Shown here one piece after another: positions 30,072 to 30,350 of a stretch of DNA of 64,000 nucleotides. Source of the DNA: Escherichia coli. GTDB taxonomy: Bacteria; Pseudomonadota; Gammaproteobacteria; Enterobacterales; Enterobacteriaceae. The notes beneath the pieces were generated by a model, which ran no database searches, had not been told where the DNA came from, and was given only the letters and a program-made list of their open reading frames with translations. The stretch lies in assembly GCF_003018115.1 (NCBI RefSeq), contig NZ_CP027457.1, one strand, 5' to 3'. Positions within the stretch are counted from its first letter, which is position 1; each line of letters begins with the position of its first letter. The translations under genes were made by a program, and so were the position numbers.

Positions 30072-30350
30072 GTGCCATTAATGTCGGATGCGGCGTGAAC
30101 GCCTTATCCGACCTACGTTCGGCACCCGTAGGCCGGATAAGATGCGCCAGCATCGCATCCGGCAATGCGCACAAGGTAACAAATGTGCCATTCATGTCAG
30201 ATGCGGCGTGAACGCCTTATCTGACCTACGTTTGGCACCCGTAGGCCGGATAAGATGCGCCAGCATCGCATCCGGCAATGCGCACGAGGTAGTGAATGTG
30301 CCATTTATGTCAGATGCGGCGTAAATGCCTTATCTGAACTACGTTTGGCA
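30072..30350. repeat. BIME array: three tandem ~113-bp units each holding an inverted REP pair
   Basis: Unit gtgccatt-atgtc-gatgcggcgtgaacgccttatc-gacctacgtt-ggcacccgtaggccggataagatgcgccagcatcgcatccggcaatgcgcac repeated at 30072, 30185 and 30298 (third truncated). Confidence 0.85.

Follow-up and report, generated by a model that had tools for sequence, protein, structure and literature searches.

A probable BIME-2 array of five REP hairpins separates the convergent speB and loiP genes of Escherichia coli and varies in unit number between strains

REP and BIME elements have been known since the 1980s and 1990s, and unit numbers that vary from strain to strain belong to the textbook picture of the class. 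A REP is an imperfect palindrome of 30–40 nt with a conserved GTAG or CTAC at the foot of its hairpin. BIME-1 elements are single copies of z1 plus y with a conserved long L linker, often with an IHF site, and it is this L linker that IHF binds; BIME-2 elements consist of z2 plus y, have a short S linker and flanking s, l or r motifs, and occur in tandem in numbers that vary between loci and strains (Ton-Hoang 2012). Tandem arrays are accordingly either BIME-2 or atypical BIMEs (Ton-Hoang 2012). A gyrase cleavage map of K-12 contains the entry 'BIMEs2 3082469-3082615 yggG>-<speB' (Sutormin 2019, Table DS3), which is the orthologue of the array described here; neither the class nor this member of it at the speB–loiP locus is new. 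For K-12, the RefSeq record gave CDS features only in this region, and in Jeong 2006 speB and BIME each receive a mention, in no connection with one another.

We analysed a window of 64,000 nucleotides of E. coli DNA (contig NZ_CP027457.1) in which the 318-bp gap between speB and loiP is filled by a repeat array. Tandem Repeats Finder placed the array at window positions 30068–30352, with a period of 113, 2.5 copies, 92% matches, no indels and a score of 479. A repeat search resolved it into two full 113-nt copies at 30068–30180 and 30181–30293, 93% identical to each other, and a third, partial copy of 58 nt at 30295–30352. A sequence-only reading had described the array as an approximately 113-bp unit repeated three times head-to-tail, the last truncated, at 30072–30350; the coordinates agree within a few bases, and three units is a fair description. 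Its further statements, that each unit holds two inverted REPs and that the array lies between convergent speB and loiP, are borne out by the features below and by the annotation of an identical RefSeq record.

29122–30042, plus strand: speB (agmatinase), an open reading frame annotated as speB in the identical RefSeq record NZ_CP024273.1
30043–30081, no strand: degenerate Z-like remnant and first head-side linker (a partial 'unit 0'), from reading the sequence
30082–30116, plus strand: Y-type REP number 1 (TGTCGGATGCGGCGTGAACGCCTTATCCGACCTAC); hairpin of -19.2 kcal/mol, z -4.8, aligning to the naRNA4 Y hairpin
30117–30127, no strand: tail-to-tail linker 1, S type, 11 nt, GTTCGGCACCC; linker classes follow Ton-Hoang 2012
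30128–30164, minus strand: Z2-type REP number 1, read on the plus strand as GTAGG...; hairpin of -22 kcal/mol, z -5.6
30165–30194, no strand: head-to-head linker 1, 30 nt, not significantly structured (z -0.76)
30195–30229, plus strand: Y-type REP number 2; hairpin of -17.7 kcal/mol
30230–30240, no strand: tail-to-tail linker 2, 11 nt, GTTTGGCACCC, from reading the sequence
30241–30277, minus strand: Z2-type REP number 2, identical to Z2 number 1
30278–30307, no strand: head-to-head linker 2, 30 nt, from the sequence and the repeat search
30308–30342, plus strand: Y-type REP number 3, slightly degenerate, with a weaker hairpin (-13.2 kcal/mol, z -4.9)
30343–30360, no strand: right-hand tail GTTTGGCACCACCATGCC, 18 nt, with an S-linker-like start, ending at the loiP stop codon
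30361–31119, minus strand: loiP (yggG, metalloprotease), an open reading frame, annotated in the same identical record NZ_CP024273.1

The array lies outside genes, between two stop codons. Its five REP hairpins alternate in orientation as Y-Z2-Y-Z2-Y, so that each full unit holds two REPs facing opposite ways, Y with its CTAC end to the right and Z2 with its GTAG end to the left. The 3' UTR of speB, the left-hand gene of the convergent pair, continues into the array, and that of loiP enters it from the right. At the left edge, the remnant at 30043–30081 adjoins the speB stop codon, aligns with the Z2-linker portion of the later units and so prolongs the array leftwards; its fold is weak (z -1.75). 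At the right edge, Y number 3 is the last REP and its end lies 18 nt from the loiP stop codon. Two plus-strand open reading frames, 30050–30211 (53 aa) and 30088–30324 (78 aa), lie wholly within the REP repeats and are most likely repeat artefacts rather than genes.

The loose REP pattern GATGCG-N6-16-CTTATC-N4-CTAC was matched eight times in the window, against 0.00 expected from shuffled sequence, and five of the eight matches fall inside the array. The other three are solitary REPs, two Y and one Z2, at 7274–7308 (minus strand), 18002–18038 (plus strand) and 46131–46165 (minus strand). Farther left, between speA and speB, an open reading frame at 28255–28986 (plus strand) encodes 243 aa with a lipoprotein-like signal sequence (…LLAGCSS…). 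It is absent from K-12, where the speA–speB gap is only 137 bp. Of 5,425 complete E. coli genomes, 3,550 contain the stretch; RefSeq calls the product a hypothetical or membrane protein, and it matched no Pfam family.

All five REPs fold on either strand, with energies of -12 to -22 kcal/mol and z-scores of -4.5 to -5.6. The whole intergenic RNA is likewise far more structured than shuffled sequence, with z -8.3 on the plus strand and -7.3 on the minus strand. The covariation sample was small, 8 distinct Y and 5 distinct Z2 sequences taken both from this locus in a number of strains and from other parts of the window. Compensatory changes on both sides had occurred in 2 of 11 Y pairs and in 3 of 13 Z2 pairs; one such change, G-C to A-T, distinguishes Y number 2 from Y number 1. 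In the same sample 96.6% of Y and 98.5% of Z2 stem cells were paired, compared with 23–46% when the pairing partners were slid. Preservation of stem pairing through compensatory changes is a known trait of the REP family.

We conclude with high confidence that the array is a BIME-2, a tandem series of alternating Y and Z2 REPs, and that it is the same element as the K-12 yggG (loiP)/speB entry with one additional 113-bp unit. The units of 35 or 37 nt, all five with CTAC or GTAG, place its hairpins in the palindromic-unit family, and Y and z2 REPs alternate in inverted orientation as in BIME-2. The linkers are 11 nt tail-to-tail and 30 nt head-to-head. The assignment follows from the tandem arrangement, the 11-nt linker, the alignment of the hairpins to Y and Z2 of naRNA4 (for Z2 number 1 with every pair kept) and the cataloguing of the K-12 orthologue under BIMEs2. 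The distinction of z2 from z1 is given by likeness to the Z2 hairpin of REP325 together with the published catalogue. Tandem copies that vary between strains, a further hallmark of BIME-2, are also found here, with 2.5 copies in the window and 1, 3, 5 or 7 REPs at the locus.

That variation emerged from a comparison across complete E. coli genomes. REP sequences are dispersed, and over 5,425 genomes a 1-kb query around the array matched at a median of 13 sites per genome. BLAST coverage was unusable for counting alleles, because overlapping pieces are joined and every allele then reaches 100% coverage; we therefore searched the joined flanks in 5,426 complete genomes and read the span between them in 60 rows, sampled at regular intervals through the ranked matches.

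Gap of 204–205 bp: 35 of 60 genomes, Y-Z2-Y
Gap of 203 bp: 6 of 60 genomes, Y-Z2-Y
Gap of 429 bp: 5 of 60 genomes, seven REPs
Gap of 90 bp: 2 of 60 genomes, one Y
Gap of 47 bp: 2 of 60 genomes, one REP-like hairpin
Gap of 318 bp: 1 of 60 genomes, the window allele, Y-Z2-Y-Z2-Y
Flanks separated by over 750 bp: 9 of 60 genomes, a class of 826 of 5,425 genomes (15%) with a D-glucosaminate island in place of the BIME

The class of about 205 bp makes up 68% of the 60-genome sample and includes K-12 MG1655, whose 205-bp gap is exactly one unit shorter than that of the window. Sequences of each class confirmed that the size classes differ by whole units. The locus thus holds 0, 1, 3, 5 or 7 canonical Y/Z2 REPs depending on the strain, and the copy-number variation expected in the sequence-only reading is upheld here. 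With about 15% of genomes lacking the BIME and a few more carrying the 47-bp, one-hairpin gap, the array is dispensable.

The 318-bp allele is a minority form, carried by roughly 1–2% of genomes. At least 54 genomes, drawn from several lineages, hold it in a single 1001-bp alignment without a break. The 1-kb stretch is 100% identical in five of them, F9792, F8111-1SC3, F6326-C1 (O169:H41), 2014EL-1345-2 (O169:H41) and NZ_LR882990.1, F9792 being an example of the O169:H41 ETEC strains, and O145:H28 STEC strains carry the 318-bp allele with 98% identity to the 1001-bp stretch of the window. The degenerate third Y and the same second long linker recur in six 318-bp alleles taken from different lineages. 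Compared with one another, five of these alleles differ at 1–4 of 318 positions; that of strain A30 is 8–11 positions away from the others. Their flanks are mosaic and differ by up to 4.1% in speB and 5.6% in loiP, such that F9792 and A30 show 0 differences in speB and 19 in loiP. Such similar arrays inside mosaic flanks suggest that recombination broke close to the array, or that the repeat itself is constrained or homogenised. On these alignments, near-identity of the 318-bp alleles within such flanks fits either one old allele that was spread by recombination or constraint or homogenisation acting on the array.

Individual strains offer glimpses of how the locus may have changed. PapRG-04-4 has a 327-bp gap in which GTTCGACACCACCAG, a right tail of the K-12 type, runs straight into CACCCGTAGG...Z2-linker-Y3 (extracted-locus positions 344–670). 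This junction looks like a trace of unit addition on the right-hand side of a K-12-type array. The 47-bp allele of E1316 contains a single, complete REP-like hairpin, GCGCCGGATAAGATGCGTTATGCGTCAAATCCGGCG, that starts 1 nt after the speB stop (extracted-locus positions 351–397), in the position that the remnant occupies in the window. Longer alleles retain a degenerate left-arm remnant of this type of hairpin at 30043–30062, and, to judge from the sequences, the E1316 allele may represent the state that preceded the Y/Z2 array. E24377A (NC_009801.1) has no REP at the locus; a D-glucosaminate island of about 8.3 kb (dagR, PTS IIA/IIB/IIC/IID, dgaE, dagF) replaces the BIME, starting directly after the speB stop codon, ending at the loiP stop codon and carrying its own hairpins (extracted-locus coordinates 4251–8260 and 6496–14125).

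Units could have come and gone through recombination of one 113-bp repeat with another, or through additions made by RAYT at the array's edge. In vitro, TnpA(REP)/RAYT cuts at iREP and linker positions and recombines BIMEs, and amplification models have been proposed (Ton-Hoang 2012). Ordinary recombination between 113-bp repeats would be an equally simple route.

What might the array do between two converging genes? We found no terminator-like or promoter-like site on either strand of 29900–30500, and the REP hairpins are the only strong structures in this interval that could end or protect the converging speAB and loiP transcripts. The hairpins have no U tract, and the pattern of an intrinsic (Rho-independent) terminator, a G+C-rich hairpin followed by a T run, is absent. 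Since there is no canonical terminator between speB and loiP, we infer that the speAB and loiP transcripts end in the REP hairpins or are trimmed back to them. Both routes have precedents. REP hairpins withstand 3'-to-5' exonucleases, and trimming takes the ends of Rho-dependent transcripts back to stem-loops of this kind (Dar & Sorek 2018). REP325, also a BIME-2, terminates transcription in partial dependence on Rho and stabilises mRNA; convergent genes flank about 60% of E. coli REPs, 78 REPs fall within predicted bidirectional terminators, and convergent pairs with an intervening REP show higher expression (Harris 2026, preprint). Genome-wide, terminal REPs show no link with longer mRNA half-lives (Harris 2026, preprint), so a stabilising role would depend on context. 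Stalling of translation, a role put forward for REPs that lie no more than 15 nt from a stop codon (as reviewed in the RepRanger paper), is not expected at this locus, where 39 nt separate the speB stop from the first canonical REP and 18 nt separate the last one from the loiP stop. In the article texts surveyed we found no term-seq, IHF ChIP or REP-transcription entry for the speB–loiP locus.

The sequence-only reading had also suggested that the array can bind gyrase and IHF, and here its two halves part company. Gyrase finds modest support in published Topo-Seq data. The K-12 orthologue carries 0 cleavage sites with ciprofloxacin (Cfx), 2 with rifampicin plus ciprofloxacin (RifCfx), 0 with microcin B17 (Micro) and 2 with oxolinic acid (Oxo), that is, 2 sites in two of four conditions (Sutormin 2019, Table DS3). 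In the same study, gyrase sites are over-represented in a subset of BIME-2 elements, y is cut more often than z2, and the signal rises when transcription is blocked (Sutormin 2019). By analogy, the three Y units would be preferred gyrase cut sites at a place where convergent transcription accumulates positive supercoils, and the REP hairpins would form a two-way block in the speB and loiP 3' UTRs, each acting as a partial terminator and an exonuclease barrier. We regard this combination, a BIME-2 serving as a two-way hairpin block and a preferred gyrase site between converging genes, as the likely function of the array, within a repeat family that recombination or RAYT would maintain and resize. 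Because the locus tolerates absence of the array, any such effect would be modulatory. The natural allelic series at this one locus (47, 90, about 205, 318 and 429 bp, or an island) is a potential test bed for the tuning of 3' ends by REPs.

IHF fared differently. That the array might be an IHF-binding BIME of the BIME-1 type (RIB/RIP) draws on the general statement that some BIMEs bind IHF and on nothing in the sequence. The IHF consensus WATCAANNNNTTR had no match in 30043–30360 at 0, 1 or 2 mismatches, where its density in the window predicts 0.02, 0.34 and 2.9; the linkers of 11 and 30 nt include none with the conserved L motif; the array is tandem z2 plus y, as opposed to the single-copy z1 plus y of BIME-1; and the K-12 orthologue is listed under BIMEs2, not BIMEs1. 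We give the IHF reading hardly any credence and correct the earlier attribution, which belongs to BIME-1 and not to tandem BIME-2. Only marginally more credible is a role as a nucleoid organiser, in which naRNA-like two-hairpin RNAs and HU bridge cruciform DNA. This model was published for REP325/naRNA4 (Qian 2015), and the minus strand does match naRNA4 in Rfam at 53.5 and 42.8 bits. Those best matches, with a third at 37.7 bits, all fall short of the 59.5-bit gathering score, chiefly owing to a head-to-head linker that is 19 nt longer; we therefore reject identity with naRNA4 and retain shared Y and Z2 hairpins only. The HU–naRNA4 compaction model itself found no support in later work (Harris 2026, preprint), and we consider a nucleoid-organising array very improbable. 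Short-read assemblies can miscount 113-bp repeats, which raises the question of whether the extra unit is an assembly artefact. Recovery of the same 1001-bp stretch in one alignment piece from complete genomes of several lineages and laboratories, the five fully identical copies, the O145:H28 matches at 98% and the whole-unit steps between the other length classes make this virtually inconceivable.

More weight attaches to the view that the array is a selfish or neutral repeat, seeded and resized by RAYT or by unequal recombination, with no locus-specific function and with neutral differences in copy number. The locus tolerates gaps of 47–429 bp and total replacement by a gene island, strains generally differ in their numbers of BIMEs and recombination of BIMEs by RAYT occurs in vitro (Ton-Hoang 2012), and mRNAs that end in REPs have equal half-lives genome-wide (Harris 2026, preprint). 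Against this stand stems that stay paired through compensatory changes, the lack of any other terminator between convergent speB and loiP, gyrase cleavage reported at the K-12 element (Sutormin 2019), and 318-bp alleles only 1–4 bases apart in five of six lineages (8–11 for A30) despite flanks that differ by up to 5.6%. We hold a purely neutral array to be possible yet doubtful. It overlaps with the two-way block and gyrase site that we favour as far as origin is concerned, and differs only on present-day effect. At the other extreme, REP number (the one-hairpin 47-bp gap; 1, 3, 5 or 7 REPs; the dga island) might be a lineage-specific 'dial' of expression. If so, REP number would set termination and stabilisation of speAB and loiP as well as recruitment of gyrase between the converging genes, and the near-identity of the five-REP allele across mosaic, diverged flanks would reflect selection or recombinational spread, not chance. 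We advance this idea as a long shot.

Among described systems, BIME-1 (RIB/RIP) elements share with the array inverted REPs and a position outside genes, and none of their own features, a single-copy z1 plus y, a conserved long L linker and an IHF site, is found here. REPIN/RAYT systems of Pseudomonas and other bacteria have in common with it inverted REP doublets, a domesticated Y1 (HUH) transposase and copy-number dynamics within genomes; their REPs belong to a different sequence family. The RAYT gene of E. coli sits elsewhere on the K-12 chromosome. REP325/naRNA4 (Rfam RF02564), a BIME-2 between yjdM and yjdN, is built from the same tandem pairs of Y and Z2 hairpins: both array hairpins align to its model with their pairs kept, and the unit corresponds to the Y plus Z2 motif of REP325 (Qian 2015). 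It differs in its head-to-head linker (12 nt, against 30 in the array), in its number of hairpins (12, against 5) and in its setting, REP325 lying inside an operon and the array between convergent genes. Closest of all is the K-12 yggG–speB BIME-2, which has the same locus, flanking genes, left junction and order Y1-S-Z2-linker-Y2, and whose first ~160 bases are identical to those of the window. The K-12 intergenic region measures 205 bp and that of the window 318, the latter having one more 113-bp unit and a degenerate third Y, and the right-hand tail reads GTTTGGCACCACCATGCC in the window and GTTCGACACCACCAGGCT in K-12.
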